DNA from: Tubulanus polymorphus
Lineage: Eukaryota > Animalia > Nemertea
Assembly: GCF_964204645.1 (NCBI RefSeq)
Contig: NC_134028.1
Coordinates: 10,896,213 to 10,960,212 of the forward strand
Direction of reading: 5' to 3'
DNA: 64,000 nt
Shown: positions 381-54,400 of the stretch, piece after piece
Position numbering within the stretch: position 1 is the stretch's first letter
How the letters are laid out: every line of letters begins with the position of its first letter
Program-made: the position numbers and the translations under genes
Notes under the pieces: generated by a model
Seen by the model: the letters and a program-made list of their open reading frames with translations, nothing else
Database searches by the model: none
Told to the model about the DNA's origin: nothing

Positions 381-3300
381 TAGGAGCACCCTTCACTGGG
401 ACGCTGCATTGCCAAAAAAATCACAGGGACTTGTCACAATTTGATGGAGGATGGATGTCGCGTTATTTTAGTTTTGTCGTAATGTCGCCCTCATTTGCAT
501 ATTCGTGTTTTTTACGCATGGCCCTTATCAGCCACCATAGTAATGGCTTTCGACTATCGTCATCGGCACTTCAATGTAGTCTTACAGCTTTAGTAGGGAT
601 TCACCCTGGGAACGAACCTGAAATCGTTGACTGCTGGATGTAAATACAAATAAACGTGCGTTTGTTTGTCCTGCTGGGCCGCTTACAGCGAATTCAATTA
701 AATGTTAGAGCGCTATCAATAACTTTAATTTTGCTCTTAAGGCGTTACCGTCGTCAAATATGCTGTCATTTATATGCTTTTATCACTAATTATAGCCTAC
801 ATTGTTTTTTTTACAATTATTTGAAAAAAATCAATGAAATGAAAAAAGATTATAATTAACACAGAATTTAGCCTTTCAGCAATTCAGTGATTCAGCGATG
901 TTAGAACATCCGCCAGTAACCTGTCTGTGATAAGGAACCATTCTGAAAAACTGAGCAATGGGTCTGTACCCCTCCAAGAACCATTCTGAAACGCCGGTAT
1001 GGACCGGCAACATGGTCAGAACATATCACTAAGTCCAATCATACTAATTTTGATCCAAAGATTGTGTATGAATGTCATAACCAATGTTTTGAACAACTCA
1101 GTGTGAGAGAACTGTGTCATGCACTGTTATGATGCTGTGCTGTGTAGGCTATCCTAAGTCAGTCAGGTCAGTAAATTACTAGATGTATAGTACGGTACTT
1201 CACTGTTAGATGGCAAACACATCTTTTTAAACCGAATTTTAGCCCGGGCTTAAAATGAACATTGTGACTCCCAATCTGTTTGAAACATGTAACTTGACGA
1301 TGGGAACAACTGGCATTAAGCACACACAAGGTCAACACAGTCAGGAACACTTTCCAAAAACGGCTTATTCTGCCAATTTGGCATTTGGGGAACAACGGCT
1401 AGGTACTAGACTAGCCCCTGACATGTGTCGTGAAAAAAATACACAAACCTTTTGCGCTTTCGACCATACCAAATTCACCTTACTCATTCTAAATGGTCTA
1501 ATAGTATCAGCAGAGTACTGCATTCCAGACGCGATGATTCTGTTCAGGAATAGGACACACATGATAAAACACAATAAGCGAAGCATTGTACCCAAATTGC
1601 GTACCGGTTGTTGAGCTCAGACCACTATTCCAAAATCTTCTATATCCTATAGCAAAAACAAGAAATTCGAGAGTTTAGTTCATATATAAGCGCGTAAATT
1701 TGGGGGAAATCCTGCTTTTGGCTCATAGGCCAGCATCTTAGCTACGCATTGAAGTGGTTTTCGCCCAGGGGGCCTACATTGAGAGAATGTTTGAAGAAAG
1801 AAAGGTCCTTTAGAAATAGGTGATACAAAATTCTCTGAGACACACAATTTTCAGAACAAAGTTGCTATATTTACGGCGTCGTAGCCGTATAGCAGTAGTA
1901 AATTCTATATTTACGACGGTTTTATATTGACATTGGGATTATGGTCTAGAGAGGAGAGGATTAGTGTCAAGAGGGTGAGAAGAGGGTCCAGAGGGTTAGG
2001 GTTAGGGTCCGTTTTACCCCCTAGGGATAGGATTAGGGTAAGGTGAGGCTATATTTAGTTAAAACATTCGAGTGGTTTTCAGCGAGCTCGGTGGTCTAGT
2101 GCCAGTGGTATGATGCTGCGCTAGTAATTTACTGGCCCAGGTTAGGTATATTCATGTCCGCGCGGGGCACCACTATCGATTGTGACGACCATTATTGATT
2201 AGGAAAAGTGTGATGCGCGTTTTTACTACGCGTTTTGACATCGCGTAGTAAAATCATTCATAAAACCTGTCTATCAATGCAAATGAGCTAAAATCTTTTG
2301 GAATCAACCAATAAGATCGATCTTTATCACTTGGGGGTTGGTTTAGTGTATAAATCCGCATTTTAGACGAAGAAAATAGAAATCGAAATATACCCTTTTT
2401 CAAGAGCAAAATTCGTCAGCTTAGGACCCGGAATAAGCGACGAATCATCAGGAATCGGAAGGTTTAGGATCTTAAAATTCAAATACTGAAGACCGCATGA
2501 TTTTATTTCGTGTCAGGGCTGAGCGATCGCTGCCGGAAAATTCAATGTCTAAGTTTTGCGTTGAAGCGAGCGATACAAAATGGTGGCCGGCACTTGTTAT
2601 TGAATGACGACGCGCCGCGCTGCTCGTGATGAGATCAATATTCAACAATTATTCATCGGTCTAGCGGTGAATTATTGTATTTATTTTCCGATTCATACTT
2701 ACTCATCACTATATTTCTGAATATTAGGACAGATTTAGCGAAATGATCGGCAAAAAAAATTTTTTTGGGGCGCGGATCGCCACTACGCTCCCGTCGGTAA
2801 AGCGGCTGTTGAAAGAGGGAGGCGTCTAACGGGATGAATTGAGGCTTGTGACGGGCAAAAATAGAGGCGCGTGATGGGACAGTGAGGCTCCCGAGGGGAT
2901 TTTCCAAAAGCAGCAAAATTGAAATATATATAAAATATTGTTGAAATTTAGCTCAAAACAAAACAAATGGATTATTATTTAGTTATTATTAGTAGTATTA
3001 TTACTTTTGCCTGGTTTATGTTTCTAAACTGATTGATTTTATTATGATATCATGAATATATTTCAAATTTCAGCGTTTTGAGCTAGGCCAAGCCTAATTT
3101 TCTGCTTTTCTTAACTAAAATCCATTTAGCAAATCATATATAAAATTGGTATATTTAAATCAATTTGCAATAGGAGCCTATGGCTATAGACCTAACTGAC
3201 AGGCCTTGATAATCATGTTCATTCATTTCAAAAATTATGTAGTGAAAAAAATAATTTCTTCTGAAATCATATCAATATTTCACATTTTTTCTTGCCGTTA

Positions 3301-3797
3301 CCATGGAAATCTAATAATGATAATCTATATAATAATAGATATTCCTAGATAAACTTGGGCAAACATGAACTATTGATAACTAGTTATTCTATCCCCTTTC
3401 TACATCATAACTTTTGATCTAACATCGATATTTTCATTATTTTACCATTTTTCGGCTGGTTTCCATGGAAACCATAGGCATTTGGAATCAGATAAAAATT
3501 TTGGGTCTTTCAACTGTCACCTGAAAGTGCTATGAGTGTATTGCTCTTTAAATTTCTAGTCTATCTCTTTTAGTTTAAGAGATATTGAAGTTTGTTTACA
3601 ATTCAATTCAAATTCAATTCAAAATATCTTTATTATTCCGTAATGCTTTACATTATTGGTTTTGCACAATAAAGATGAGAAAAAAAAAGAAGAAGAAAAA
3701 CAGTATAAAATATGAGAAATTCCTTAACAGTATTTACATTTTGTACATGATAGGAAATTATATACATATCTGGAATAGTTAGGTATTGTTTCTTTAT

Positions 3798-6700
3798 TCA
3801 CAGCGGGTTTGTTTTGCTAAGCCAAATATATTTGCCAAGGTTATGAGCCATCAGGGGTGAAGACATAATGGTGATAAATTTGTTTTCAGGGGTTGTAAAT
3901 TTCTGTTCGGAAAAATGGGTATCAAAACATTTAATTAGTTCAACTCTGTAGCTATCAAATTTGGTACACTGCATAATAAAATGGAATTCGTCTTCAATTA
4001 TATTACATGAGGTGCATAACCTATTTTCCCTTGGGAGGCCAGAATGCCTACCCCTTTCTATTAACAGATGGTGAGCACTCAGTCGCATTCTTGTGACTTC
4101 GGATTTATAGGTTTTGTTGATGCTCATTGATAGATAGTGTTCCATGCTGAATTCAGATTTAATTTGGCAGTAGCATTTCAATTTGCTAAATTGGAGGATT
4201 TTTTGTTTCCAAAATATTTTGTATCTCTCAGTTAGGACGTGTCTTATAGATTTTGAGAGTTCAGCTAGTACTCTGTCAGTATCTAGCTTGATGTTCCTGT
4301 TCGTGGCTGTTAAAAGAGCATCAACAAAACTATTCCATGTACATTTTTTTGACATCATTTCTTTAAAGACTGTATTGATAAGATGACCTTTTCGTGCGCA
4401 AGCGTGTTCCCAGTATCTAATGACTTGAGTACAGGCATTGATGTACATAGGCAATCTCCCTAGTACCCCTAGGACAGCTAGATTTGTTGTTTTTCGGTTA
4501 ACATTCAGAATAAATTTACAGAATTTAATAATCAGTCCAGTTAGATGAGTATCACTGTCAAATGCTTGCTCAATACAATATGGTTTACCAGAGGTCATCT
4601 TCTTGCTTAATGTAATATTTGGCAGCCAAATTTCACAGCCGTATAAAGAAATGGGCATGACAAGGCTGTCGAAGAGTTTCAGAGAGATATCTGGTGAACA
4701 ATTTTGTATCCCTATCATTTTCATTATTGATAGCATGGCCCGGTTGGCAGTGTTGTAGAGTATTTCTTTTGCTTTTTTGAATGAACCGTTGGCTGTAAAA
4801 ATTAATCCCAAATATTTGAATTCTTTAACAATTTCAACACTCTTCCCATTTATATCGAATTCAACATTGATTGGAATTTGCCCCTTTTTGTTAAAGATTA
4901 TAACTTTACTCTTAACAGGGTTGATACTGAGTTTCCATTTTGAGCAGTAGTTAGAAAATTTATCCATACATTTCTGAAGACCTTCTTTCGAATTCGATAC
5001 AATGACCAGGTCGTCGGCATAAGAGATAGTTAATAAATGTTTCGCCAAGTAGCCTAGTACAGGATCACAAAATTCATCAAATATATCGGCGACATCATTT
5101 ATGAAGACATTAAAGAGTAACGGGCTTAAAATATTACCCTGTTGTACACCATTGTGACACTGGAAAGGCTGTGATGTGGAGTTTTCATTAATCTTTAGGC
5201 TCCACGAAATATTTTGATACATACTTTCGATAAGTCTGGTGAACCTCTTTCCAAGAGCTAAATTGCTAATTTTGTGGATCAGTCCCTCATGCCATATTGA
5301 GTCAAATGCTTTTTTAAGATCGATAAAGCATGTATATAATTTTTCCGAGGCACTAAGTTTCATCTGAATAAGTCTTTGGAGTGTGAAAAGGTGGTCTGTT
5401 GTTCGGCATTTAGGCATAAATCCAATTTGGTTTTTGGTGATAACATTTTTGGTCTCCAGGTATGACATAAGCCGATTGTTCAATACTGAAGAGAATAATT
5501 TGCCGAGACAGCTGTTTAGGGTTATGCCCCTATAGTTATCTGGGTTGCATTTGTCTCCATTTTTATGGATTGGTACTATCAACCCTTCAGCCCATTGATG
5601 CGGGAAGTGCCCGCTTGAATACACAAAGTTGAATAGTTTGGCCAGTGGGTGAATCAGGATATCAATGCCATATTTCAAAATCTCATTTGTTATACCATCA
5701 AGACCAGGCGATTTGTTGTTCTTTAGTTTCTGAACAGCAATTCGAATTTCTTTGTCGGTGATCAAGAAGTCTAATTCAGTGAATATATCATCATTTGACA
5801 AATTTTTAAGGGGATGTTTTTGCCTTGCATCATTTACATTATCTTGAAAAATTGATTTGAAATGATGAATGAATGGTTCCAGGTCATCAATAGAGTTACG
5901 TGAGGATCTGTTAGTGTTTGATAATTTTTTAACTTATTTCCAAAACTGTTTAGGATTCCTTTTCGCGTTTCTAAGTTCGTCAAATTGCCCCTGCCTAAAC
6001 TCAGCACGTTTAGACCTTAGAAGTTTGCGGTGGAGTTTTTTGCGCATAAAATATTTTTGCCTATTACATTGACTGGGGTATTTATGCAGGATCTTGCCGA
6101 AATGTCGAACTTTAGTTCTTGACCTTTCACATTCTCTATCAAACCACTGTTTGTTATCAGTTTTCATGGGGGGGTTAGGATGTCGTTGGGGTTCAGCTAC
6201 TTTTTCATTTAGGATTAGCATAAAATCGTTGACAACAGTATCTACAGTGTCATAGCTTGGGTTCAGAGATTGCCATACTGCATCTTCGCAGTAGTTTTGG
6301 AGTTTTGAGATGATGTCGTCGTTTGTCAGAATTTCTATGACGTCATCAGGGCTTTTAAACTTCGAGAATTGTCTGTTATTGAACTTTTTGGATTTACATT
6401 CACTGCGATTCCCTTCTCCCATATAGTGCGATTGGAAATCAATCCCAAAGCCTATTGCACTGTGATCTGATAATTCTGAGAATGATGTGTGGACATAGAA
6501 GTATTGAACCAGGGGAAAAATAGTGTCGTTTACAATTGCCAAATCAACAACACTGCTACCATTCCACTGATGGCATGTAAACTCCCCGAAATGATCACCT
6601 GGGGTCCTGCCATTTAGGATGCACAGGTTATTTGTTTTACATAAGTTAATCATATTTTTACCCATCTTATTTACTGTTTTGTCTTTACTTTTCCGTTTTT

Positions 6701-7302
6701 TCAGTATTGGTATGTCTAGATCTATACTAACCATATTTGGTATATATTTGTCATCTGGATTAATTGAACTTATGTCAGATACCTCCCCAATTCTAGCGTT
6801 AAAATCACCCGTAATTATTACATTGCCCTGGCTCGCATATTTTAAATACTCTAATTCAAGTAGGCCCTAATTGAAAAGTGTCATCCGAATTTTTGTTACC
6901 AAAGGTAGAATTTGTTGGGCTGATATAACATGATGCAATGAAAAGGGGAGTATTCGAGTTCTGCCCTGTACTGTCTTGGACTTTCAGCCAAATAATTTCA
7001 GATGAAGGTTGTTCAATTACTTTTACACAATTTTTGAGATGATTTTTACATAGTATCATTATACCACCAGAATTGCGCCTAGCATTTTCACCGCGATTTC
7101 TGGTGACCTGGTAGTTGAAATAGCCAGGTACCTGGATGTCATCGGATTCAGAGGAATGGGTTTCAGTTAGACAAATGATGTCGTACGGTTTGATTTGATC
7201 CAGAAATAGTTTGTCTTCAATTTTGTTATGATAATGACTGACCAGGCCCTGGATATTCCATGTACAAACATGCAACATAACTCTATCGGACCTTGGAATC
7301 AT
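3798..7302 (-). pseudogene. LINE ORF2 (APE endonuclease - reverse transcriptase - C-terminal CCHC), ~1165 aa when repaired
   Basis: Motifs TWNIQGL, CLTETH, ITGDFNAR, VVDL, SDH (EN); NYRGITL, FIDLKKAFD, GVQQGNILSPLLF, YADD, YLG (RT). Two lesions: 7-nt insertion at 6861-6869 and in-frame TAA at 5934-5936. Confidence 0.93.
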
Positions 7303-7344
7303 ATTGGTTGTTCCGAGATCAGACTACACGTAATATAGTGAATA

Positions 7345-9337
7345 TTATTTTCCAAAAAGTCCGAGTGATGAGCGTGTGGTTACAGCCAAGTTTCTAGCGA
7401 AGGATCGGATTCCTTGCCCGTCGTTAAAGTGTACATTGTCCATGAAGAGTCGTTTGTTGTTTAGGTTCTCATGTCTGCAGACGTATGCGTTAGAATCTTT
7501 AGCGGCCATACTTTCTATGATGGCGTTAAATAGTCTCGACTTTACACTCCGGATATCGGCGTTTAATCATGTTTATGAGGTCGATCATTGTTGTTACGCA
7601 CTCGTCCGCGCAGTTAGTGTTTCGAATATCATTTGTCCCAACATGTAGTATGATACAATTCGGGTCGTATGTATCTGGGAGACTGTCGATCACGTTTGCA
7701 GCTTCAGTAATTGTGTACGCCCGGATTTTTTCTACTTCGCAACTGTCTTTCACAAACCTCCTTTCGTTAAGGTATTTCAAGTTTGACTCACCGATTACAA
7801 GTACACTTTTCTTTGATCGCGATTGTATGTGTTCAGACCGGTGACTGTTCCCATCGTGCGGGTAGCTATCTTGGTGGCTTACCGACGACTTTCTTTCGCC
7901 CGAATAGTTTTTTCCGTGGTCATGCTCGCCGATTGGTATATCTGGTCTGTGTGTGTCCCGCGGTTTACGTATCTGTACGGTAGTTTTAGCATTCGTATGC
8001 AAATAGTCGGTAGTGTCCTCTTTTTTGTTTAGCATATTCGCGACACGGTTTATACTAGAGTTTTGTTCCTCCATATTTGCCTTCATATCGTGTAGATCTT
8101 GCTTTAGAGTATCTGTATTGTGTGTTGATTGTAAGATATCGCGGATTCTCGAATCGTTTCTATCCAAAATTTTTCGGACAGTTTCTGTGGTTTTAATCAT
8201 GTCTGGAATGTTTTCACAATATTGCGATACATTATCAATCCTCTGCGCACAGTTGTCAAGCTTATCGTTGATGCCTCGTAACTGACTAGTTCTCGCGCAC
8301 TGGCTGACTTCCTGTGTTAGTGATACTATTGCTGCCTGTATGGTCTGAAACATTTGTATGATGTCTTCCCCATCCAGAAGAGTCTCTTTCGTTTGGCACG
8401 CAGCAGTTGTTGTTGGTTCAGTCGCTATCTGTTTGGTGATAGTATCTGCGGCCTCCGGGTTTACAGCAATCTCGCACATAGTGGCAGCATCACAGTATGA
8501 TTTGATATTCGTCACATCAGTTTTTTTGGAAGGCCTGCACTTAGGACACATGTACAGATCATCAATGTTTTGCACTAGGTTTTCTACCTGGTCCTTCGGT
8601 AGTTTGGTACATTTGAAGTGCGTCCAGTTTTCGCACAGAGAACACTGGATCATCTGCGTGTTATCTGGATCATTACACTCGATACAGTTATTCTTTGTTG
8701 CCTTGGTAGGGCTGGCAATCGATAGACGCTTTAGTTGTCCCCTTTGAGTAATTCTGTTCTGGATATCATGGAAGTGTTCGTTCATCCATAGGAGATACGA
8801 GTTTCCTTGGACGTGTAGTTTGGGTGATTTGGCTGTCTTTCCTTTTGCTGACCCACGGTACAGGGTGATATGGACCGATCCAAGCGAATTTTCATTACTA
8901 CCCTTGTAGATCGATGAGAAGTGAAGGCCGTGTGCTCCCCTGTCAACAGGGTTACCATACATTTCACGTAGAACGATTATATACGCAGCAGTTTTTTCCG
9001 TATCAAATTCAATAACCATAGAGTTTGATTTTTCATCAATGTTGACGTTGTTCTCGGGGGTTGTACTGGTCCTGGTCGACGCTCTTGAACTTTTAAGTTT
9101 GTCTCTGAGATAGATATAGGCTCGATTAAGCTGTTGAAATTGTTCAGTTGCCTCGGCAGCTACGTTTTTATCCGGATGAAGCTGCTTTGCTAAGTTTATG
9201 TACTGTGTTCTCAGTTCTTCTAAGGAGTTGGGTGTGCTCGATAGCTTGAGGACGGATAGAATCCCTTTGATGTCGGATTTCGTCATAGTCGTTTCTCGCG
9301 GTTTCTTGTTGTTGTTATTGTTAATGGGCGCCGCCAT
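7345..9337 (-). pseudogene. LINE ORF1: J-domain + unknown alpha/beta domain + PHD finger + coiled coil + SGNH esterase
   Basis: ATG at 9337 (AAGATGGCG); J-domain with HPD at 9170-9178; C4HC3 PHD ~8537-8686; VLVIGESN, LHVGTND and, after a frameshifting deletion near 7540, DNVHFN, ending at TAA 7345-7347. Confidence 0.85.
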
Positions 9338-12300
9338 CTTGGATTTATATCTCCGATCGTTCTGGTATTTAAACAATGCCTTAAAACTCTTGAATACACT
9401 CACGTTTCTTGTTGGTTAGCTTATAACTATTCTCGAGTATCTTGTCTTATAAGCTGTTGCAGTTTTAGGTAACTGTGTTGGTTAATTCGTTGGTAATTTT
9501 TGACTTTCTTAGAGTAGACTCAATTAACCCGCCATCGCTCTGGTGGCGCCACCACTGTTACATGAAATATTGCCTTCTTAGATCACAGTTTTTGTGTATT
9601 GAAACATGAAGACACTTTTCGCTCAAATTTTCAAACTTCAATTTACGATATCTCGAAAACTACTGAAGATAATTCAAAAATTTAAAAAGCATATTGTTAT
9701 TTGAGCACTCCCCATTCCAACAAGCTTTCTTTCAGTAAGATTGGAGCTATTTGAATTTTTTATGGATATAGCTACCCGGGTTCGAGTCTCGCTCTATCCG
9801 CTCTATTTTCTCCAACTCTTGATTTTTCTAAGTCATGCACCCTAGTGCGCATGCGCAACGCGAAATAGCCAATCAGAATGAAACGTCGTAAACTTGACTA
9901 GTAAAATCTTTCGTAAAATCTGCGAAATGATGTTTCAATGTCTAAGAAGGCCGAATCCCCCACCGTGTTTGGTACCCTTACTCCTAGTTAGTTACCTAAT
10001 CGTTGGTGGTAAGCTTTTTATAATCAGATGGGCTTATACCAACGTTAGGGATGACAAGGACCAAAACACGGTTGAAAAAAGTAACACTTCAAAAATATAC
10101 TTTCTATTCACTTCAGTCCACAATTAATGGCTTAATTCACAAACTAACACAGGTACCTTCCGAAATAATCCAATTTTATGTATGTTTCGAGTGGTTAATG
10201 AACATTATTTTGAGAAATTAATTAATTTCTCCACCAATTTCGCCATTGGCCGCCATTTCTCTGTATTGCACATGTGGCATGATAAGACAAGGGGACCTAC
10301 AAGGATTTATATAAAACTTCCAAGACGAAACGACAATTTTTATTTTTGATGGTTTTCCAATCTATATTTCAGATCTTCGTGTTTTCCATAATAAATAATG
10401 AAATAATAAATTCTGGTATAAGAAAAATGTGAATAAGTGTTGATTTCTTAATTTTTTTCAATTTCGTCGTTTCGCTTCGTTAGTTTGTGCTGTTGTCCTG
10501 GCCTCAGTCCACAGGTGCCAGCACCTCCAGTAATTTTTAAAATGGCAGCTGTTGACCCGACGGAAATTTACTCTCACTTTACGGCCGATTTGCACATGGA
10601 TTAAGATCGTCAGGTGAGGTGTTATAGGTATCAGACAAACTACGAATCTGTTGTGCGTCGATTACAACAAAAATTGGACGGATATCTTAAGAGACAATGA
10701 AATGCCAGGCAAATTACTCGTCAGTCAAATTGGCTGACGAAGATTTCATACAAAAGTGACCTTCCCATTCCTGACTGTGGTTTGTGAAAATATCCGATTG
10801 TGAAACTAAACCACAGACAGGTTACTGACTACCTTACTCCTCCAAGCAAAAAAGTCCACGGAATCCCTTATTTCATCATCGATCTGTCTCCAGGATCAAT
10901 GGATTTCATCTGTTCATACATAGGCCTAACCGAAATTCGTTACCTCTTATCTATCCCATTTGCAGGTACTATTTTTGGTTCGGCCCTACGCCTCTTTAAG
11001 CTACTAACCTCATTGTGGTCTGATGTCTGTTTGCGTTGCAAAGTCATCCACACACAACCACACGGCCTTGAAATTCGCTTAATAGTCCCACTTTTACCGC
11101 AATCGTTTTATAGACGGTCTAGACTGGTTGCCTGTCCCATTCTCTATTCTAATTGAAGATGTTACGCCCCAAGTGAGAATACAACCCAAGTTGAAATATA
11201 GTTGCATCTAAAATCCGAACTCCGCTACGACTGAAACGCTGATGTGTTAGTTAATTAGATGGCGCCAGCTACCGGTGCAAAAATAGTCGAGGCTCGAATT
11301 TATCCTTTTTTCACCAGGTTTTTGAACTGATCAAAACAGTAAGCTCATATCGATATGAAATCTTTAATTAACTAAAATTCACACAATTCATTCTATATTT
11401 AAACTTGACATGGAGTGTCTGATTTTTGGGCATTCCATATCACTTTCCGAGTAGGCATAGTATAGTGTTCCTGGACCCCTTTAAAAATGTACTCTGAAAA
11501 AAGAATATTCTCTATTTTGTTATGTCATTGAAGATTCTCTTCTATGGTTGTGCCAACGCAACTTCTTCTAATTTTGATTCCATGTGTGAATTTGCATAAT
11601 TGATTTGCATTTTGCAGGTATGAACTTGTATTGAATATTCAAACATTTTTGTCCATTTGAGGATTATGAGTGTCCATAGATGGAATCAGGTTTCTTTTTA
11701 ACGTTTTCATTACACTTTGATGTGTTGTCTTGATGCCTTTCCTAGGGGCATCGTATAATTTTTATGGACTTTTGCTTTACTGAAGTCCATTTTTGCTCAT
11801 GTATGACACGTGCCTCCATTGGTACAAAATAACTTGCGAAAGAAGCTTAGTTTCTCATCTGAACTTTCAAAATGTTCAATGTTGTAATAATCTCTAACCC
11901 TCCTGCACCACCCTCCTGTAAGGTTTGTTAGAACTCTACAGCCGGTAAGTCTTAATAAATCTTCTTGAAAGTTTGTGTATGAGTTGGAACAGGTAAGAGG
12001 TGATATTGAAAATGGTGATCTATCAGCTAGATGATATGTCCAACATGACAGCCATGTCTGCCATCTTGAAATTTGGCACCATACAGCCTGCCAACCTATA
12101 TTGATTTCCTTGACCCTGGTGTATTAGCAGGTAAGAGGTCTACCCCTATTAAAATTGGTGACCACCAATTGTCTAATATTGCTGCTATATTATCCAATGT
12201 ATGATTTTCTTCATTTTCAATAATCATTAGCATTGTCACATGTTATATACCTGTAGAAATCTGTGACTAATGAGTATACTCTACACCAGGGGAGTTGAAA

Positions 12301-13201
12301 ATTTGAATACACTACTACGTATTAGTCAATTTTTATGAAAACCATGTTATGTATTGATAATGATGTTAAATGGCCATTTGTCTACAAGGTATATATTGAT
12401 TCCCCTATGTAGATTCAGTTATTTTCGATTTGAGGAATTTCTATCAACCTCAGGTACATGTATATCGTACATAGTTTAAAATGACCCTTGTGTAAAAGAT
12501 TAATTTTGTGCTGTAATTATCAAAAGTGTCGGAATATTCATTATTGCCATACCACGTACCAACCATTGTGGGAATAGACTATTTCTGTTGCATGGCATGT
12601 TGTCTCTACTAAGAGTCCTCCATGGTTGTACATCAGGGGACCAGTCAAAAAATGAAAAAATAGTTGAGAAAAAAATGTTTCGGTTCTCCATCGTAGGTTT
12701 GACACATATGTATTAATGTTGTAGTCATCGAGAATTAATCATATCTCTACAGATTTTGTGCATATTTACATGTCAATAAAGATATTTTCAAATAAGACCA
12801 TAGCGTTGTGTTTCCATTGCTGAAAAGGAATAGGATCGATTCGATGCAGCTTACTTGATTCCTTTATTCGACTAGGGCCTACATCTTGTTCAAAAAATGG
12901 CGTCCGGCTGTTAAGACGTGTTGGTACAGTGGAGATTTAAAGTTTCATTTCGATGTCCTTCCACACTTGCTTGATTTATAAGATCTACTCAATCTATGCA
13001 GTGCTGTTCTTCTGAATGAGACAACGAAGTGTACAAAGAAATTAGGTAACTTTTTACTGGTATTTAGTGGTTCTATAGTATTAATCTATAGATATCGTCG
13101 ATAGTCTGTCCTTAAGTCGTTCACACCGTAGTTGCCAAACGTTACCATAGAGACGTTGTGTACCTGTCAAAAAGTCATGGTCGACTGGAGATAATCTAAG
13201 T

Positions 13202-14161
13202 ATGGGTAGACCGAAGAAAGATCGCTCGACGAAACCTGCCACCGCTACCGCAGATAACAAAGGCACAACGCCGAGTAACAATAACGTTGAACCCGCGTCA
13301 AATACTCAAAGCGCTCCGAAACAACAAACTCTGATCACGCCAGTCACTAGTACCCCGACTGCAGCCTCAGACCCCGAATCGAGGAAAAGATTCCCCTCTG
13401 AAGAATTCTCACCTCGTGAAGGTATAAAAAAACCCAATATTCCTCCAAACGTGAATCAACAGGCAACGAGGCCACATAATGAAAATTTCCCCGTAGACGA
13501 AATTGCGAGCACCGTCTCGAACCTGCTAAATAACGAGGAATCAACCGCGGGTCTAGTGAACCGAATCGTGTCGGCCATAAAGTTCACATTTCAAAATCAA
13601 CTGGAACATCTTGTAAAAACGATCGATGATCAAAACGAAGTCATAGCTGATCTTAGTGCGAAACTGGATCACCAGGAACAATATTCCAGGCGAAACAATA
13701 TCATTGTAAACGGTATAAAAGAAAATTCTTCCGAAAACACGGACCAAATAATTCTAGATCTCGCACGTAAGATCATGCCTGATGACGCTCCCGCGATGGA
13801 ACTCCGAGATATCGATCGATCTCATCGCCTCGGGCCCAAAAGAGATGGAACAAACCGCCCGATTATCTGTAAATTCGTCACTCACCGAGCGCGGCAATAC
13901 GTGTTGGTTAATCGTAAAAAGCTCCCTAAAGATGTTTACGCTAATGAAGACCTGACGAAAAGACGCCAGGCGATTCTGTACGAAGTCCGAAAATTATGGA
14001 AATCTAAGCGTATTTACGGTTTTTACGTTCGCGATGGTAAAATACTCGTCATTAAAACCGAGCGCGAGAAAGCGATTGAAATCAGCGACCATTCATCAAT
14101 ATCGGCTCTCAACAAGGAATCAACCCCATCAGCGAACCCGAACGACACCACATACTACTAA
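13202..14161 (+). CDS. LINE ORF1 protein (coiled coil + RRM-like L1-transposase-type domain), 319 aa
   Basis: Intact ORF with LDHQEQYSRRNNIIVNGIKE, DIDRSHRLG, RPIICKF and VYANEDLT motifs typical of CR1/L2-group ORF1. Confidence 0.88.
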   Translation: MGRPKKDRSTKPATATADNKGTTPSNNNVEPASNTQSAPKQQTLITPVTSTPTAASDPESRKRFPSEEFSPREGIKKPNIPPNVNQQATRPHNENFPVDEIASTVSNLLNNEESTAGLVNRIVSAIKFTFQNQLEHLVKTIDDQNEVIADLSAKLDHQEQYSRRNNIIVNGIKENSSENTDQIILDLARKIMPDDAPAMELRDIDRSHRLGPKRDGTNRPIICKFVTHRARQYVLVNRKKLPKDVYANEDLTKRRQAILYEVRKLWKSKRIYGFYVRDGKILVIKTEREKAIEISDHSSISALNKESTPSANPNDTTYY

Positions 14162-15149
14162 TCCGATCCCGTCAACAATTGCGTTGCATTCGTGTTTTGT
14201 TCATATCTGAAATCCGTACACTTCTATGTTCGACCCCGTTAGCGAACTCGAACGACTCCGCGTACTAGTGTTCCGATCCGTTCATTATATACTTACATCA
14301 CATTGTGTTCCGTCCATCGTGATATCCGTACCATACCCTTCTACCTACAAACCTAACCTATTCTACGATCCGTTGCGAAATTAGACCCTTTAAGGGACTA
14401 AATGTTGCATTGTGCATTACTTTCAGTTTCCGTTTAAATTACGCACCTTCCTTTCAACGACTCGACAGAATAATTCATACCGTTTCGATGGGCACTAAAA
14501 ATCGCTCCATGGTCCGCACTGCGTTAATTGTCTCGGCGATCCTTAACGTTCGATATGAACGAAATCCGAGACTAAGGGAAGTCTCGAACAAAACCTCTTT
14601 TAGTATATATTTGTGGTGTTTGACTTAACTGCATTTCACTTCGTTTATTGTTGAATTTGATAATATGATACTAGATGTAAATTCAAAAGGTGTTACATTT
14701 CTTTTTAAATCATGCATTTATTCGAACTCTCAATTCAATTCTGTGTCTGGACTCGAGATTGTACCTCCTTTAAACCTCTTCCTTATTATCAATGAGTTAT
14801 AATAGGGAACTTTATTTTCTCTACTCATCGACTCGTTTGTTGGTTACTATCCGAGCGAATCGGAATATAAAACTACTTGTTATCCTTCCTTGAATACGTA
14901 GACATTTGGTGTATAGAGATATGTAACACGTCTGCCCGTTCTATTATGTACCTATCATTAGTACATTTTGATTAATTTTCGATAATATAACTCCAGTGCG
15001 ATATCCCCAAGTTATCATCACTATTACTCTGCATATGCGATTAATACTGTGTACATGTCTAAAGGACAAAATTTTTTTTTGTTGTTTCCAATTTTTCTAC
15101 TGTGTAACCATCTACCCGCATTTCGCCTGTAAATTATGTTTCATGATGA

Positions 15150-18066
15150 TATATTTTTGGATAGTGAGAAGGATCCCCCCCGACACTACTTATTATTCCA
15201 TTGACTCGCTTAACGCTCTTGTGAACACCAACGACCAACAGAGTGGATTATTTCTATACCATACCAATGTTAGAAGCATGAACAAAAACTTTGAAAATTT
15301 AAGAGATACAATAACTAGTTTAAACTTTCACCCACAGTCATTGGGATATCCGAAACGTGGGCGCTAGACGATCACGATAATGACGTATTATACAAACTAG
15401 ACGGGTACAATAGCTTTTTCTTAAATCGTCATTTTAACCATGCAGGCGGTGTGGCTATATACATCGATGACCATTACCATTGTAAAGTACGTAACGACCT
15501 GAGTATAGAAAGTAACACTTTTGAATTGTTATTTTGTGAATTGTCGATTTCACGTAATGAAAAAATATTAGTCGGTGTCTTATATCGACAAGGAGGTTAA
15601 CCAATTGATCAGTTTACCAATGAACTTAATTCAACATTAGCTAAATTGCCTAAAAATAACGTGTTCATTATGGGCGACATCAATATAGATCTCATCAAAG
15701 CATCCACGCACAACAAGACCCACGACTTCTCAAATAACATGGTTTCGCATTCATTACAACCTCTTATTTTAAAACCAACAAGAGTCACCGAAACGTCAGC
15801 AACCTGTATTGACCACATATATACCAATGTTGACAACCAACGATCCGGCATATTGACTACTGATATTTCAGACCATTATTCTACCTTTGTTATTTACCCG
15901 CGTGCTCGACGGCTTAAAAATGCACCGTACATTATCCATTTTAGACCTATCAATGAACTCAATATTTCGGATCTTAAAGCGCGCTTGGCCAACGAAGACT
16001 GGAGTGACATATACACAACCAATGATCCAAACGTAGCATACAATCTCTTTTTCACGAGATACAAGATGCTCTACGACTTAAGTTTTCCTATTCTAACTAA
16101 AAATGTAACTCGTCCTTCGTGTAAACCCTGGCTGTCCGAGGGCTTACTAAATTCTGTCAAAACCAAATTGAAATATTACCGAATATACAAACGAACTAAG
16201 CGCGCTGATCATCACGAACGTTACAAGAAATATCGCAACAGGTTGAATCGATTGCTTAAAGCTGCGCAGAAACAGCACTTCGCACGAGCATTAATTGCTG
16301 CGAAACATGACCTGAAAAAAACTTGGTCGATTCTAAACCAAGTTATCGGTAGCCCTAAAGATATAAATATATGCCCACCATGTAGAGACATAAATGGTGT
16401 AGACCTTGACCCTTTAGATGTAGCCAATAAATTCAATTCTTTCTTTACTAACGTTGGTAGAAACTTAGCGGACAAAATTCCAACAACCGAAATCTCTCCC
16501 CTATCATACCTCCAACCCGATTCTTCAAATAACCTGTTCCTAAACCCAATTATTCAGCAGGACATTTTATATATTGTCAATAATTTGGATGCTAATAAAG
16601 GTGCTGGGCCTGATGATATAATACCTAAAATTGCTAAGTCTGCCATCTCTGAAATAATGGAACCATTACTATACATCTTCAATAAGTCATATTCAACGGG
16701 GATAGTTCCCGACGCTCTTAAAATCGCCAAAGTTACCCCAATTCATAAAGGCGGTGATAAAAATGAAATCACTTACTACAGACCTATATCAGTCCTTTCG
16801 TTCTTTTCTAAAATCCTAGAAAAAATTACCTACGCCCGTATAATATCCTTTGTTGATAATCATCATATCCTTAACCCTCATCAATATGGCTTTAGGAAAA
16901 ATTCATCTACGGAACTTGCACTGCTTGACTTTACAGATCATATCTCAAAACAGGTTGAAAATGGCCAATTCTCAATAAGTATTTTCATTGATTTATCGAA
17001 AGCTTTCGATACAATCGACCACTCAATTTTGATCCAAAAACTACACAGATTAGGCATAAGAGGCTTACCGAATGATTGGATTAAAAGTTATTTATCAAAT
17101 CGTAAACAATATGTAGACTACAACAAATCTCCTTCCAGTTATCAGCCCATCTCGCACGGTGTCCCACAAGGTTCTATTCTTGGACCATTACTTTTTCTTT
17201 TGTATGTAAATGACATAATACATGTTTCTAAGTTATTCAAGTTTATACTGTTTGCTGACGACACTACCATTTCTTGTAGCAACAAAGATCCTATAGAATT
17301 AATTCGTGCCGTAAACCGCGAACTGATAAAACTATCTACGTGGTTTAGAGCAAACAAACTCTCGTTGAATGTAAAGAAAACAAGCTACATGAAGTTTGGC
17401 AATTTTAGATTACCAGACAATACAGAAATCAGTATAGACAATCAACCTGTTGCTCATTCGTGCACCAACAAATTTCTTGGTGTGATTTTTGATGAAAACC
17501 TAAACTGGTCAGCACATACTGCCTATACATCTGACAAAGTTACACGTGCTATTGGTTTATTGTTCAAAGCCCACAAATGTCTACCCCAGCCCATTTTGCC
17601 CACACTTTATAATTCCTTAGTTTTACCATATTTCCAATACTGCAACATTGTCTGGGGACGTACATATCCAATCCGTCTGTATCATCTTAGCATCCTACAG
17701 AAACGGGCTTTACGACTTGTATATAATGTACCTTACCTAGCACACTCTTTAAACTAGGCAATCACCTTAATTAAATTAACTGACATTAATAAGCTCCAAA
17801 CAGCAAGCTTCATTTTCAAGCTGACGTGCAACAAGGTACCTAATACCCTACGACATATTCTTTTATATAGGTCTGGTCAGCAACATCATATTCTACGAAA
17901 TGCCAATAATTTAAATATACCGCAACATCGCACTACTAAACGCTCGTTCTCTATTAGTATAGCAGGCCCAAAGCTTTGGAATTCTTTACCAATCAACATC
18001 CGAAATAGTTCATCTCTTTATAGTTTCAAGCACAATCTCAAGAAGCAACTCATGTCAACCTATTAA
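15150..18066 (+). pseudogene. LINE ORF2 (APE endonuclease - reverse transcriptase), disrupted
   Basis: HTNVRSM, then frameshift to IGISETW, GGVAIY, in-frame TAA ~15598, IMGDINID, TCIDHI, ISDH; RT HQYGFR, FIDLSKAFD, GVPQGSILGPLLF, FADD; TAG at 17755-17757, then in-frame C-terminus to TAA 18064-18066. Start uncertain. Confidence 0.9.
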
Positions 18067-19536
18067 TCAACATCTAAAATCTTGAGCAAACCAAAATATT
18101 ATAAATGTGTAGAAATTTATTTTATGCAGAAATGCTTATCTTTTTAGGGATAATATCTCATTCGTCGAAATGGGAGGACTTTTCTATTCTTAAATTATCC
18201 CGTTAATTAATCAATAACAGTCTACCATCAATTAATCCCATGGCTAGTTTATGCTATAACGTAGAATTTTGCATCCTTCTCATTATCCAAATAGTATCAT
18301 TCCATAATTCTCAATGTTCCTTCTTTTCATAACTGCATTTTATGTTATTTGCTCCAGGGCCTCGGCTTGACAATCACTTAATGATTTCCGAGGTCCTGAT
18401 GATTGTCATGTATTATACATAAACATTTTGTAACAATTATGTATTTATATTTGTATCATGATAATCATCAAATAAATCAAATCAAATAAATCAAATATGT
18501 TAAATTCCCCGACATCAATTTCCGAAGTTCACGTTATCGTATTGGGTTTTAGTTCAACATTTTAGTTGAGAAGTTTATGCATCTATAGTTTTGACTGGAA
18601 TACAACACCGTTGGGCAAATATCTCAAATATATAGAAGGAAAAATATCGAATTGTGGTCGGCCCAGACTGCAGATCGATTCCTATGTACTGCCAAGGCTT
18701 CTAATGCAATATCTCGAGGCCCCCACATCGCTGCTGCAGACCAGATCTTTGATGCAGAGCCCAACATATGAATGACCTGTTCAGCCCTACAAATACATTT
18801 TTCTGGCATTCTATCATATCATTTAATGATAATTACTGAAGTAAAGTACTCGACGTAAGCCCCAATACGAAATATTTTGAAGCATGAGTTTATTTTTATT
18901 GTTTCAATCATAATATTACATGTAATGCATTCACATCGAGATGTTACTTAGCCTAAATGTTTAGAATAGTTATTAAGATGAGCGCAACATACATAGCATC
19001 AAAATTTAAAAATTCAGCCATCCATTAAAAATATTGACTCGTTTTTTAGTGGGGTAACTAAAACACATTTTAAAAAATAATTTCCAGTGCCGAATCTGTA
19101 AGAAGAGATGAAGTGGGGTTTCTTCCGACTTCCTGAGCTATGAATAACTAGTTTTAAAATTTAAAAGTGATTTCGACGGTTTATCCGAAGTTTAAAAGCC
19201 TTGCGTAAGTTGGATCTTTTGGGACCAAGACAAATCCTTCGACTTCGAAAAATTCCGATTTCCAGCCGTTTCCAAAAACTATACGACTTCCAATTAATTT
19301 CTGTAAACGGAAAAATTTAATCCATATCTACAAGAATGATTAAAAACACTGAAATATTTCGGGTTCAATTTTTCCAATATACTCTCACAACTAGAATAAC
19401 GACTGTTGACATGTATCATCGATTTACAGCCAGAAAAAAAGGGTCGGAACAGAAAAGAGAATAGAGGAGAAAATTCTGGACCATCAGTATTCATGTGATA
19501 TAAATGTGATCGTGATATAAGCGAGTATCCGACTAC

Positions 19537-21000
19537 GTAAATTCCTTGTTTCTGAGTTGAAATCATCGCCCTTTTATTTCCGCAAGTGACTTTTTAGGTA
19601 TTTTCCGAGTTTCTGAGCTGAAATCATCGCCCTTTTAATTTCGCAAGTGACTTTTTAGGTAAATTCCGAGTTTCTGACCTGAAATCATCGCCTTTTTAAT
19701 TTCGCAAGTGACTTTTTAGGTAAATTCCGAGTTTCTGACCTGAAATCATCGCCCTTTTAATTTCGCAAGTGATTTTGTAGGTTAATTTCGAGTTTCTGAG
19801 CTGAAATGATCGCTCTTTTAATCTCGGAAGTGACTTTGTAGCTAAATTTCGAGTTTCTGACCTGAAATCATCGCCCTTTTAATTTCGCAAGTGACTTTTT
19901 AGGTAAATTCCGAGTTTCTGACCTGAAATCATCGCCCTTTTAATTCCGCAAACGACTTTTTAGGTAAATTCCGAGTTTCTGAGCCGAAATCATCGCCCTT
20001 TTAATTTCGCAAGCGACTTTTAGGTAAATTCCGAGTTTCTGAGCCGAAATTTTCGCCCTTTTAATTTCGCAAGTGATTCTGTAGGTAAATTCCGAGTTTC
20101 TGACCTGAAATCATCGCCCTTTTAATTTCGCAAGTGACTTTTTAGGTAAATTCCGAGTTTCTGACCTGAAATCATCGCCCTTTTAATTCCGCAAACGACT
20201 TTTTAGGTAAATTCCGAGTTTCTGAGCCGAAATCATCGCCCTTTTAATTTCGCTGCGACTTTTAGGTAAATTCCGAGTTTCTGAGCCGAAATTATCGCCC
20301 TTTTAATTTCGTTAGTGATTCTGTAGGTAAATTCCGAGTTTCTGAGCTGAAATGATCGCTCTTTTAATCTCGGAAGAGACTTTTAATGTATTTTCCGAGT
20401 TTTTGAGCCGAAATCATCGCCCTTTTAATTTCGCAAGCGACTTTTTAGGTATTTTCCGAGTTTCTGAGATGAAATCATCGCCCTTTTAATTTCGCAAGCG
20501 ACTTTTTAGGTAAATTCCTAGTTTCTGAGCCGAAATCATCGCCCTTTTAATTTCGCAAGCGACTTTTTAAGTAAATTCCTAGTTTCTGAGCCGAAATCAT
20601 CGCCCTTTTAATTTCGCAAGCGACTTTAAGGTAAATTCCGAGTTACTGAGCCGAAATCATCGCCCTTTTAATTTCGCAGTGACAACCGGGATCACACACA
20701 ACTCACCAGAACAACAATGGATTCTTTTCAAGAGAGCGATGTCACAACGCTACATTTCTGAAGTGAAATCATCGCATTTCACAAGTGATTTAGGTAAATT
20801 CTGAGTTTCTGAGCTGAAATCATCTTTTTTTAATTTCGCAACTGACTTTTTAGGTAAATTCCGAGTTACTGTGAGCTGAAATCATTGCCCTTTTAATTTT
20901 AATTAAGTGATTTTGTTAGGTACATTCTGAGTTTCTGAGTTAATCATCGCCCTTTTTTCACGAGTGTCTGTGTAAATTTAGAGTCTCTGAGCTGGACATC
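19537..21000. repeat. 61-bp tandem repeat array (~19 well-conserved units to ~20680, degenerate units beyond)
   Basis: Unit ~GTAAATTCCGAGTTTCTGAGCCGAAATCATCGCCCTTTTAATTTCGCAAGTGACTTTTTAG head to tail without spacers; unrelated interruption at ~20680-20755. Confidence 0.95.
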
Positions 21001-51400: not shown

Positions 51401-54400
51401 CCAGATGCGGGAGGTAGTTTTTTTAATTTTTAGCACCACCTTTGCACGAAAAATAAATGAGAAATCGCTTCGAAATAAATCACGCCAGAAATCAAACCCG
51501 GAAGTAGCTCCACAGCGACCTTAGCATTTGACATAGGCCTATGGTAACCGACTCCGTTGATAGGGGTTAGAGTCACCACTGGTGCTGATAATATCATATA
51601 TATTAATACGATCAACTTTTCTCGATACGTTCACAGAGCTGCCAACCTTGATTTCATCTTTGGCTGAACACATGTCCAGATTTATCAGTATTTTCAAAAA
51701 TTTTCCAGTAGTCCCAAATTTTCAAAACAGAAAACGCTTAAAAAGTCAGTATTAAGTTATCAAAAGTCTGTATCACAATTAACACATAGAACGTTATTCA
51801 TAATAGAACAAATTCTATTAAAATATGTTAAAATATATTGAAATACTTCAGTAACAGAAATATTATTGATTGTCGAGATCACAATTAACTAAAATTAACA
51901 GTCACAGTAGAAAAACACAACAAAACTTTTGTTTGTTGATAAACTAAAATAAAACATAACATAACATAGCAGTAACAATTATAATACTAAATTTATGATC
52001 AGGCACTAGATAATGCCAGTGTGTTGCGATTAATGATTTTTTAATGACAACCTGGTTGTAGATTTGCATTTTCTTAATAAAGTTTCACTATGATTATTCA
52101 AATGGCATATCCCACCACGTGACTTCAAAAGCATCAGTGCCTCCAGAGTATCTGGAGCAAGGCAAGAACGAAAATCTGTCTTATTTTTACGGACGGTACT
52201 GAACACGCGTTCACAGCAGGCATTGGCCACTGGAATCAGAAGAATTATCATCATGAGTCTGGGAAGCACATTAAATCTAAAAAAGATGACAGACAAGATG
52301 CTCATTGATAAGAATCTAATATATATGACATAAAGTGTTACACTAGACATGAATGAGCCTATGTACCTTTGAGATCCAGTACAATCAATAAGCTGTGCCA
52401 TCAGTTTCCACTGTTCTTCGGCTGGTCTATGAACAGGATCCTTCATTTCAGTAGCAGACGGAATTATGAACAGATCTAATGGGAGATCTTCTTCCTTCAA
52501 GGTTTGATAATCATTGAATTCAGCCTCAATGACATCGAGATCAAAGTTGTCTCGAAGACAGGGGAATCGATCAATGAAGTACTTCATATCTCTAAATTTT
52601 GTGGTCCCTCTCAATGATATGTCAGCCACCTGTGAAGATTAGAAATGCACACACAAACATAAGCCTGCCACAGCAAAGACTATTAAGTTGCAGCGTAATT
52701 TACTTTGAACTGTTCAACCTACCTCAGCATGTTTCCACAAAGGCTGATCACCTGGGTTAATCTTCAGTTTGATATAATTCAACACTGTTTGATAAAACTT
52801 GACTACATCTTTGTAGAATTTCAGTTCCGTGGACTTTGATACGCCATTTGAAATGACATCCTGACTGGCAGAACCTATTACTAGATCTGTGTTCCCTTTA
52901 ATATTATACGAACTTGTGTAATCGATTTGCATTACATTTGGTTGCTGGGTAAACGCAGATGGCTTGCAAATTCTTTGTATCAAGGTAGTCACCAGTTTTT
53001 CGATCACTCTTCTCACTTTGTGGATTTGAGAATTTTCACTCTGCAAAGTCGAGTTAGTAGTCTCAAAAATCTACAAAACATGAATTAAGAATACTGTTTT
53101 ACAATACATGAAGTTGTCATTTAATAAGTCCACAGTATATTCACCACATTAATTATAGACAAATGAATACAGCTTAATATAGCAAGAAGTCTTGAGACAA
53201 AAAACCACATCAATAACCCTAGAATGTATTAATCTGTATTAAGGATTAGGCTATGTAAAAAATATTTGAAAGATTATAATTACCTCTACAGCTTTCATGA
53301 CAAAGGCAGTATATAATTTAGCCGTGCGCCTGCTGAAGAAAGATTTCAGTGTTTTCTTCATAGAACCAGACGATTCAGTACCAAGTTCATCTTCATAATC
53401 CTCACCATCATTTTCACCATCACTACATTCAGCATCGAAAAAAGATTTCAAGGCAGTCCACTGCTCCAGAAGGCGCTTCAAAGCAGGGCCCATAGTTAAC
53501 CATCGTGTCGGGACATGCTTCTTCACTTCATGAGGGGGAATTTCAAGATCCTGTTGAAGTTGCAGCAAAGCCGCGCCTCTCTTTGTTGACTTACTGACAT
53601 ACCAATACAGTTTTCTCAAAATGTCATCGAAGTTGAATTCATCGCTTAAACATTTTAATCCTTTTGAACACGCAAGGTCAAGTAAATGACAGATGCATCC
53701 GGCCAAGTGAACTTTACTATTTTTATCATGAACAAACTTTATAGTTCCTCTTTGTTTCTCCCTGTCATTACAGAGCAATTATCGCAAACAAGACTAAGTA
53801 GTTGCTTCCACTCGATCCCGTTTGAATTGAGTTCTTGATTTATTATGTCAAAAATTGCCTCACCGGTGTGTGATGAATTCCAAATTGGTAAAGACAAGAG
53901 CTGCGTGTGACAGTTTAACGATTCGGTGTCAATAAATCTCACAACAATGGGATAATAAGTGTTATTTTGTAAGGCAGAGCCATTAATTCCTAAAACAAAT
54001 GGATTCGTTTTAAGAGCATCGACACATTTTTCTTTGACGACTTTAGCCAACTCTTTTATTATGCATGTTGTTTTGGTTCGACCAGAGCTATAATCTTTAG
54101 CTATTTGACTGTCAGGAAACATTTTGCGAGCCAATTCCCCGACATGGTCAGCTGCACTAATAGGAATATTGTGCTCGACTAAGAACTCACAGAACATCGT
54201 TTCAGCACGAATAACAGATAGGTCTTCTTTTTTCACGAAAAATGATGTTATATTCTTAGATTTATTCAAAGCTTTGGCAGCTTCCGAATGTTTACTTGTG
54301 GCCATGTGTCTATGGATATCGTCGACGCCACCGTAGGCTACCGTAAAATCGCTTTTACAGTAGGCGCAGAAGGCATGATGTTTGGACTTACTACTCTTTT

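Follow-up and report, generated by a model that had tools for sequence, protein, structure and literature searches.

The closest described relatives of the element considered here are long interspersed nuclear elements (LINEs) of the RTEX, CR1 and L2 groups. In the available parts of two published accounts, the type IV proteins encoded by their first open reading frame (ORF1), exemplified by ZfL2-1, RTEX-n_BF and RTEX-1_SK, have a coiled coil and then a C-terminal SGNH esterase, ahead of the apurinic/apyrimidinic endonuclease (APE) and reverse transcriptase (RT) of ORF2 (PMC3905857, PMC4120745). The same order is found in a LINE on the minus strand of a 64,000-nucleotide stretch of the genome of the nemertean Tubulanus polymorphus (NC_134028.1, positions 10,896,213 to 10,960,212; the window, Table 1), whose ORF1 comprises a J-domain, an α/β domain here called domain X, a PHD finger, a probable coiled coil and the N-terminal half of an SGNH esterase. 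The J-domain was noticed in a first-pass annotation made from the sequence alone, which overlooked domain X (aa 96–207), situated between the J-domain and the PHD finger, and also a clade of amphioxus relatives lacking the HPD (His–Pro–Asp) motif. In Table S1 of the first account, the coiled coils of the RTEX_BF and RTEX_SK ORF1s fall within aa 266–462 and their esterases start at aa 469–550 (PMC3905857); the corresponding values are ~331–449 and 511 for the window element and, for the esterase of most amphioxus relatives, 460–512, so that sizes agree, with no residue-exact match to a named family. As far as these entries go, neither a J-domain nor domain X is mentioned, and the N-terminal ~270 aa of RTEX_BF are unannotated in the table (PMC3905857); some catalogued RTEX families may therefore carry the pair unrecognised. 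By likeness, the lineage probably belongs to RTEX or stands near it, and it is likely to be in Repbase already. The C-terminal Cys/His motif of its ORF2 is taken here to be RTEX-like.

Proteins beginning with a J-domain are also known from viruses. The HPD motif and a basic helix II constitute the Hsp70-stimulating surface of a J-domain, and an N-terminal J-domain is borne by the large and small T antigens of polyomaviruses. As is generally known, these are likewise multidomain proteins of a parasite that start with an HPD-containing J-domain with a long helix III, beside other domains; however, they belong to a DNA virus and their clients are the Rb–E2F complex and the replication machinery, and the likeness to the LINE protein is known at the level of the J fold only. 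The hepadnaviral RT is activated by host Hsp40/Hsc70, and the J-protein auxilin acts in uncoating. An RT engaging its own RNA may likewise need Hsp70 action in a LINE; the hepadnavirus, however, borrows a host J-protein whereas the LINE encodes the J-domain itself, and a chaperone need of the LINE RT is suggested by analogy only. Class C J-proteins, of the auxilin type, act where a partner domain tethers them. Like the LINE ORF1, they have a J-domain joined to a targeting domain, without the G/F region or the DnaJ zinc finger; the LINE version differs in being encoded by a mobile element and in its partners, which are domain X, PHD, coiled coil and SGNH. In its presumed mode of action, the LINE ORF1 resembles a class C J-protein that a parasite has brought along.

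By its anatomy, the element is an APE-type retrotransposon without long terminal repeats (non-LTR), possessing an ORF2 with APE and RT domains, a target-site duplication, a tandem 3′ tail, an empty site and dispersed copies with different 5′ ends. Its copies were examined via same-species sequencing reads and contigs (runs X1, X2, X3 and X4). As many as 118 X4 reads, together with X1, X2 and X3 contigs, show the empty site, in which 3595 is joined to 9558 with five shared letters; read depth over most of the LINE is ~8–31 against the 118 X4 reads at the joint, and the host repeat that received the insertion is commoner in the reads than the LINE itself. This joint encloses the J region, which begins ~280 nt inside the 5′ end of the LINE, bearing out the proposal that an intronless J-domain lies within the boundaries of the element. 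A neighbouring host gene or exon as the source of the J-domain is ruled out by its intronless position inside the target duplication. Further 5′ junctions in the same species, at 9541 (X2) and 9420 (X1), are both upstream of an intact J region and point to further copies that also hold it. The repeat in which the LINE sits is multicopy (flanks 3300–3600 and 9558–10300), and a much commoner repeat starts near 9985 (depth ~2000 in X4).

The ORF1 frame is open from 9415 to 7526 on the minus strand, with its first ATG at 9337. The J-domain peptide with HPD at 9170–9178 is present as described earlier, on the minus strand, which had not been specified. Its reported continuity with the PHD, coiled-coil and esterase parts holds for the PHD finger and for the N-terminal half of the esterase; the DxxH part lies in another frame (7345–7566), and the coiled coil itself is suggested by weak coiled-coil-type Pfam matches and by heptads read by eye. 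The ORF1 start (9330–9342, minus strand) falls within AAGATGGCGG, which presumably resembles a YY1 site; words similar to it also occur in the 5′ region of L001 (90–330).

The J-domain of the element is a J-domain by sequence and fold. The DnaJ profile proposed for checking it, Pfam PF00226, matches ORF1 with E 5.9e-11 and 42.7 bits, above the curated gathering cut-off of 27.8; a phmmer search against the PDB found 18 sequences at E ≤ 0.001, all of them J-domain proteins; and an AlphaFold2 model built with 63 aligned sequences has helices at 20–29, 39–53 and 63–86, with the HPD in the loop between the latter two and a pLDDT (predicted local distance difference test) above 90 over aa 21–80. These three lines of evidence together indicate that the domain is real. 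Chance resemblance is ruled out by the score above the cut-off and by conservation in relatives. No read substitutions are listed in the HPD, which is weak evidence at the available depth. Across the 55 family members with an HPD, helix II has a net positive charge (mean +3.35).

Domain X was modelled with a pLDDT of 91.9. A VIA-align comparison with 48,161 solved chains gave a best Z of 7.3 and none of at least 8; Z values below 8 may reflect a common arrangement only. The matches include CYTH proteins, Mediator subunits, BamC, KA1 domains (Chk1, Z 7.1; SAD-B, 7.0; METTL16 bound to U6 RNA, 6.9; TUT1, 5.6) and the N-terminal TBP-like domain of RNase H3 (Z 6.5, rmsd 2.5 over 69 residues). The KA1 and RNase H3 domains thus resemble domain X at Z 5.5–7.1 and 8–14% identity, a resemblance of fold only. 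For either ORF1 model, Foldseek returned no match at E ≤ 0.001. The model indicates a helix-grip, KA1/TBP-like fold for domain X, which speaks of fold and not of function, and the domain is likely to hold RNA or the RT–RNA complex. Esterase-type ORF1 proteins (ORF1ps) have been described, in the portion of the source available, as having no structured RNA-binding domain (PMC3905857), a gap that domain X could fill. A newer Pfam family, PF27108, lies between DnaJ and GDSL on amphioxus relatives and may be domain X; no paper on it was found in the literature search, and it is absent from the Pfam scan results here.

Taken as a pair, the J-domain and domain X would form a tethered Hsp70 co-chaperone acting on the element's own ribonucleoprotein (RNP) particle, a role that we regard, on balance, as somewhat probable. 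ORF1p would multimerise through the coiled coil and coat the element RNA; domain X would grip the RNA or the RT–RNA complex; and the adjoining J-domain would make host Hsc70 hydrolyse ATP at that site. Hsc70 would then clamp onto ORF2p or the ORF1p coat, and the predicted result is either an RT that becomes folded or primed while on its own template, or a looser coat that lets target-primed reverse transcription proceed. Accessory targeting would fall to the PHD finger and the esterase. Chaperones are present in human L1 ORF1p complexes according to the part of the report available (PMC3753637), which is compatible with this role and not specific to it. The fuller scenario, in which an old and widespread LINE lineage has its own Hsp70 co-chaperone and a hitherto unrecognised KA1/TBP-like RNA-binding domain fused to the J-domain delivers Hsc70 to the RNP, activating the RT or uncoating the RNA, is put forward tentatively, as possible rather than probable.

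Relatives of the N-terminal region are numerous. A phmmer search with ORF1 aa 1–312 against 1.84 billion representatives produced 232 matches at E ≤ 0.001, the best 150 of which were analysed. With a domain-X profile rebuilt free of PHD columns, and with our own J profile, domain X was found in 80 of these 150 and a J-domain followed by domain X in 69; the 11 with X and no J mostly begin at or near X. The HPD is kept in 61 of the 69, and four of the eight exceptions belong to an amphioxus group while the other four have a single changed residue. Of 72 relatives chosen for a Pfam scan, with a match extending beyond a lone J or PHD, 65 passed the DnaJ cut-off and 17 had GDSL_2 at E ≤ 0.01; a GDSL/SGNH domain is carried by 16 of the 20 that have at least 750 aa. 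In a 63-row alignment (A1), H, P and D are conserved at 95%, 90% and 95%. Pairs of sequences share on average 37% of their residues in J and 33% in X, as against 25% in PHD and 11% in the linker, and the J-domain is retained together with domain X in families that are no more than ~30–37% identical. The J segment thus recurs in same-species copies and in distant families, as the first-pass annotation had asked to be checked along with the HPD, and a one-off chimera is ruled out. Of the four refuting conditions set out in that annotation, the three on the DnaJ profile, the other copies and the HPD in related families were checked, and none counted against the proposal.

Identity in J is correlated with identity in X: for 59 sequences outside amphioxus the Spearman coefficient is 0.62 (Mantel p 0.001), falling to 0.47 for pairs with less than 45% identity in X. 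In 39 of the 59, the nearest neighbour in J is also one of the five nearest in X, against 5.1 expected. This covariation fits one old capture passed on with the element rather than many, although kinship alone yields such a correlation. Comparison of the sequences indicates that J and X are the constant core, around which PHD, esterase and NADAR vary. A NADAR domain occurs before or after the esterase in the J + X relatives P0004, P0114 and L002 (1075–1902). A FastTree tree was computed for 75 sequences and 172 columns, with short or N-terminal X matches excluded and a midpoint root; its deep nodes are weak. A divergent clade in this tree (P0060, P0071, P0074, P0124, P0131, P0143 and P0198; support 1.0) has J and X, and in its long members examined C2H2 zinc fingers replace PHD and esterase.

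The amphioxus clade comprises 13 sequences (support 0.995), its named members being from amphioxus, and keeps the J fold (Pfam DnaJ E ~1e-8) with no HPD. The HPD-less amphioxus proteins are P0038, P0050, P0068, P0086 and P0161–P0169. This retention of the helical fold is what would be expected if the J-domain helped ORF1p to fold or stay soluble, or capped domain X structurally, while Hsp70 activation had become secondary or had been lost, and the weakly basic helix II of the window copy agrees with it. A purely structural role would not need the HPD, however, which persists in 61 of 69 relatives at ~35% overall identity, and we rate this explanation as quite improbable. The claim that the lineage encodes its own co-chaperone is well supported as to anatomy and conservation; stimulation of Hsp70 is predicted.

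The PHD finger bears on another proposed use of the J-domain, the remodelling of silencing complexes. It scores above the Pfam cut-off (PF00628, E 4.9e-6, 26.9 bits, cut-off 24) and its fold resembles H3K4me-reading PHDs (Foldseek; no match at E ≤ 0.001). The PHD might dock on histone tails while Hsc70, brought by the J-domain to chromatin or to silencing complexes of the host, displaces or remodels host factors at the target site or at the promoter of the element; in the parts of the literature available, plants do have J-proteins in chromatin and silencing complexes (SILENZIO, PKL partners). Yet a PHD core cannot be recognised in 7 of the 22 long relatives, one of which has C2H2 fingers instead, and all seven keep the HPD; in other long relatives the PHD is ~200 aa further on, and both HPD-less members among the 22 keep the PHD, so that J tracks X rather than the PHD. 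A role at PHD-bound chromatin is weakened because of these distributions and appears unlikely. Of the three uses first suggested for the J-domain, RNP assembly or disassembly and RT activation fit best, since domain X accompanies J throughout.

The J-to-X spacing is short (17–43 aa in a first count of 63 sequences), which bears on a third alternative, that the J-domain is a counter-defence or decoy diverting Hsc70 or co-chaperones from piRNA (PIWI-interacting RNA)/Argonaute loading, stress-granule sequestration or ORF1p degradation. Argonaute loading depends on Hsp70/Hsp90, the HPD and the basic helix II are conserved, and the NADAR capture in P0004, P0114 and L002 suggests a habit of carrying host-facing enzymes. 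Such a fixed spacing suits tethered local action better than titration, and a decoy is an explanation to which we give little credence.

Several observations suggest that the relatives look like mobile-element ORFs, although their copies could partly be one locus in different assemblies. The nine members of cluster P0022, of 96–99.6% identity and some of them fragmented, are spread over eight different megabase contigs; clusters P0016 and P0002 each comprise three members, on three contigs of that class; and many other relatives are on 5–9 kb contigs. The converse possibility, that they are host genes or a mixed set and the window locus alone is a LINE–host chimera, draws on databases that name amphioxus proteins as host proteins and on the searches for an RT: no DNA among metagenome and viral contigs and prokaryote genomes ties a relative's ORF1 to an RT, and the two metagenome contigs with relatives (2.0 and 1.9 kb) both end within ORF1. 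No ORF1–ORF2 fusion was found among proteins of 2007–5000 aa, where one unrelated giant protein was the only hit; the 12 protein matches of the amphioxus set have no endonuclease or RT domain; a word-index search with the full ORF1 gave no match; and the ESM Atlas gave no usable match for the ORF1 N-terminus, with P0014 leads only below 0.9. Against the host-gene reading stand the 5′ junctions at 9541 and 9420, the near-identical and sometimes split copies of P0022, and the GDSL/SGNH domain typical of such ORF1s in most long relatives, and we consider a host-gene origin very improbable. From the mobile-element standpoint, a link of the relatives to an RT is inferred. Names are attached to relatives from Branchiostoma alone, and these read 'G-protein coupled receptor', 'J domain-containing protein' or else esterase; the amphioxus 'G-protein coupled receptor' entries in NCBI are probably misannotated LINE ORF1s.

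Some points weigh against a co-chaperone acting on the RNP. To our knowledge, most LINEs retrotranspose without a J-domain of their own. The HPD seems dispensable in the amphioxus clade, since its HPD-less members nevertheless have near-identical cluster members. Helix II of the window copy, with two basic residues, is among the least basic. The structural matches of domain X are all below Z 8, with CYTH proteins and Mediator subunits in the top rows, and comparison with KA1 and RNase H3 TBP-like domains gives no sequence-level match (8–14% identity), hence no sequence support for an RNA role. The missing DNA link between the relatives and an RT counts here as well. Among same-species copies, the 34 ORF1 substitutions listed comprise 8 synonymous and 26 non-synonymous changes, a ratio of near neutral decay after insertion; selection is therefore visible between families only.

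The window copy is dead: its ORF1 has a stop mid-esterase, and its ORF2 has a frameshift and a stop not found in other copies, the stop at 5934–5936 being missing from them according to read variants at 5935–5936. Directly behind the PHD, at 8521, one base is absent from 13 of the 17 X4 reads and from X1 and X2 contigs, so that other same-species copies are out of frame there. This T-run, shorter by one, is the majority state; it would terminate ORF1 after J–X–PHD and may be one common dead allele. Some other copies have an insertion at 8979–8982. Additional sequence at 7538 in an X1 contig seems, on inspection by eye, to carry the esterase on, and the Ser block reads GES in the window copy and GDS in other copies. 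As in type IV ORF1ps, an SGNH domain comes after the coiled coil; it has the Ser and GxN blocks, and its DxxH block (DNVH) is located one frame over. Lipase_GDSL_2 (PF13472) matches with E 1.6e-5 and 25.9 bits, under the cut-off of 32.9, because the domain is cut short. In the PDB, the ORF2 RT matches those of R2 and L1.

In the main texts of PMC3905857, PMC4120745, PMC5408684, PMC11203168, PMC10294476 and PMC13343379, as available, there is no real occurrence of 'DnaJ'; the one 'dnaj' match, in PMC4120745, comes from words printed together in a reference, and supplement file 2 of PMC3905857 has none. A full-text literature search, with Repbase, Dfam and most subscription journals outside its scope, found no LINE- or transposon-encoded J-domain, and a prior note is possible because some amphioxus members have been given UniProt names automatically that point to a J-domain. 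If the proposal is correct, this would be the first transposon-encoded J-protein, extending the T-antigen strategy of Hsp70 co-option from viruses to transposons, and domain X, offered as a candidate for the RNA-binding module missing from esterase-type ORF1ps, would be a fourth kind of ORF1 RNA-binding module. The assembly and removal of the ORF1p coat and the chaperone need of the RT are hard to test since host chaperones are essential; an own J-domain would turn the question into an experiment on one motif, the HPD, with the HPD-less amphioxus sister clade as a natural control. Some invertebrate 'J domain-containing proteins' in databases are probably transposon ORF1s, inflating Hsp40 gene counts.

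Other features of the window, including a second, unrelated LINE, are listed at the end of Table 1.

Table 1. Features of the window; positions are counted from its first letter.
Feature	Position	Strand	Remarks
Full-length APE-type LINE	3601–9557	−	5957 bp; within multicopy repeat; dead copy; empty-site joint in reads
Target-site duplication, 5′ side of LINE	9558–9562		TTACA on + strand; 5 shared letters at joint
Target-site duplication, 3′ side of LINE	3596–3600		TTACA on + strand
LINE 5′ untranslated region	9338–9557	−	220 nt; from target duplication to ATG 9337
ORF1	7526–9337	−	603 aa open, intronless, stop mid-esterase; ATG 9337; stop 7526–7528
J-domain, aa 20–86	9080–9280	−	Three helices, long helix III; Pfam match aa 29–82 = 9092–9253
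HPD motif, aa 54–56	9170–9178	−	No variant listed there in reads
Domain X, aa 96–207	8717–9052	−	α/β, helix-grip (KA1/TBP-like) fold by model and structural alignment; candidate nucleic-acid-binding module
PHD finger, ~aa 217–267	8537–8689	−	Pfam PF00628; Foldseek PHD matches
Probable coiled coil, ~aa 331–449	7991–8347	−	Weak coiled-coil-type Pfam matches; heptads read by eye
SGNH esterase, N-terminal half	7529–7807	−	GES and GTND blocks; Pfam PF13472 E 1.6e-5
SGNH C-terminal part (DNVH block)	7345–7566	−	In a frame other than that of ORF1
ORF2 N-terminal part, APE endonuclease	5937–7323	−	Frameshift near 6860; PF03372 E 4.7e-8, PF14529 E 6.9e-8
ORF2 RT and C-terminal Cys/His motif	3798–5933	−	RVT_1 E 6.6e-40; behind stop 5934–5936
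LINE 3′ untranslated region	3601–3797	−	AATAAA at end, then short TTGAA-type tandem tail
Second, unrelated LINE	13151–18500	+	ORF1 weak baculovirus-FP-type match; broken APE-RT, RVT_1 E 1.2e-37; ATCAA-type tail 18467–18496
Tandem array	19537–20683		18.9 copies of 61-bp unit; 89% matches
Broken hAT-type transposase	52033–54599	−	Dimer_Tnp_hAT E 1.2e-10
Tandem duplication, 247 bp	59361–59857		
RT and RNase H-like frame	59538–64000	−	Pfam RVT_1, RT_RNaseH; GC-rich upstream frames; possibly DIRS-type or LTR element
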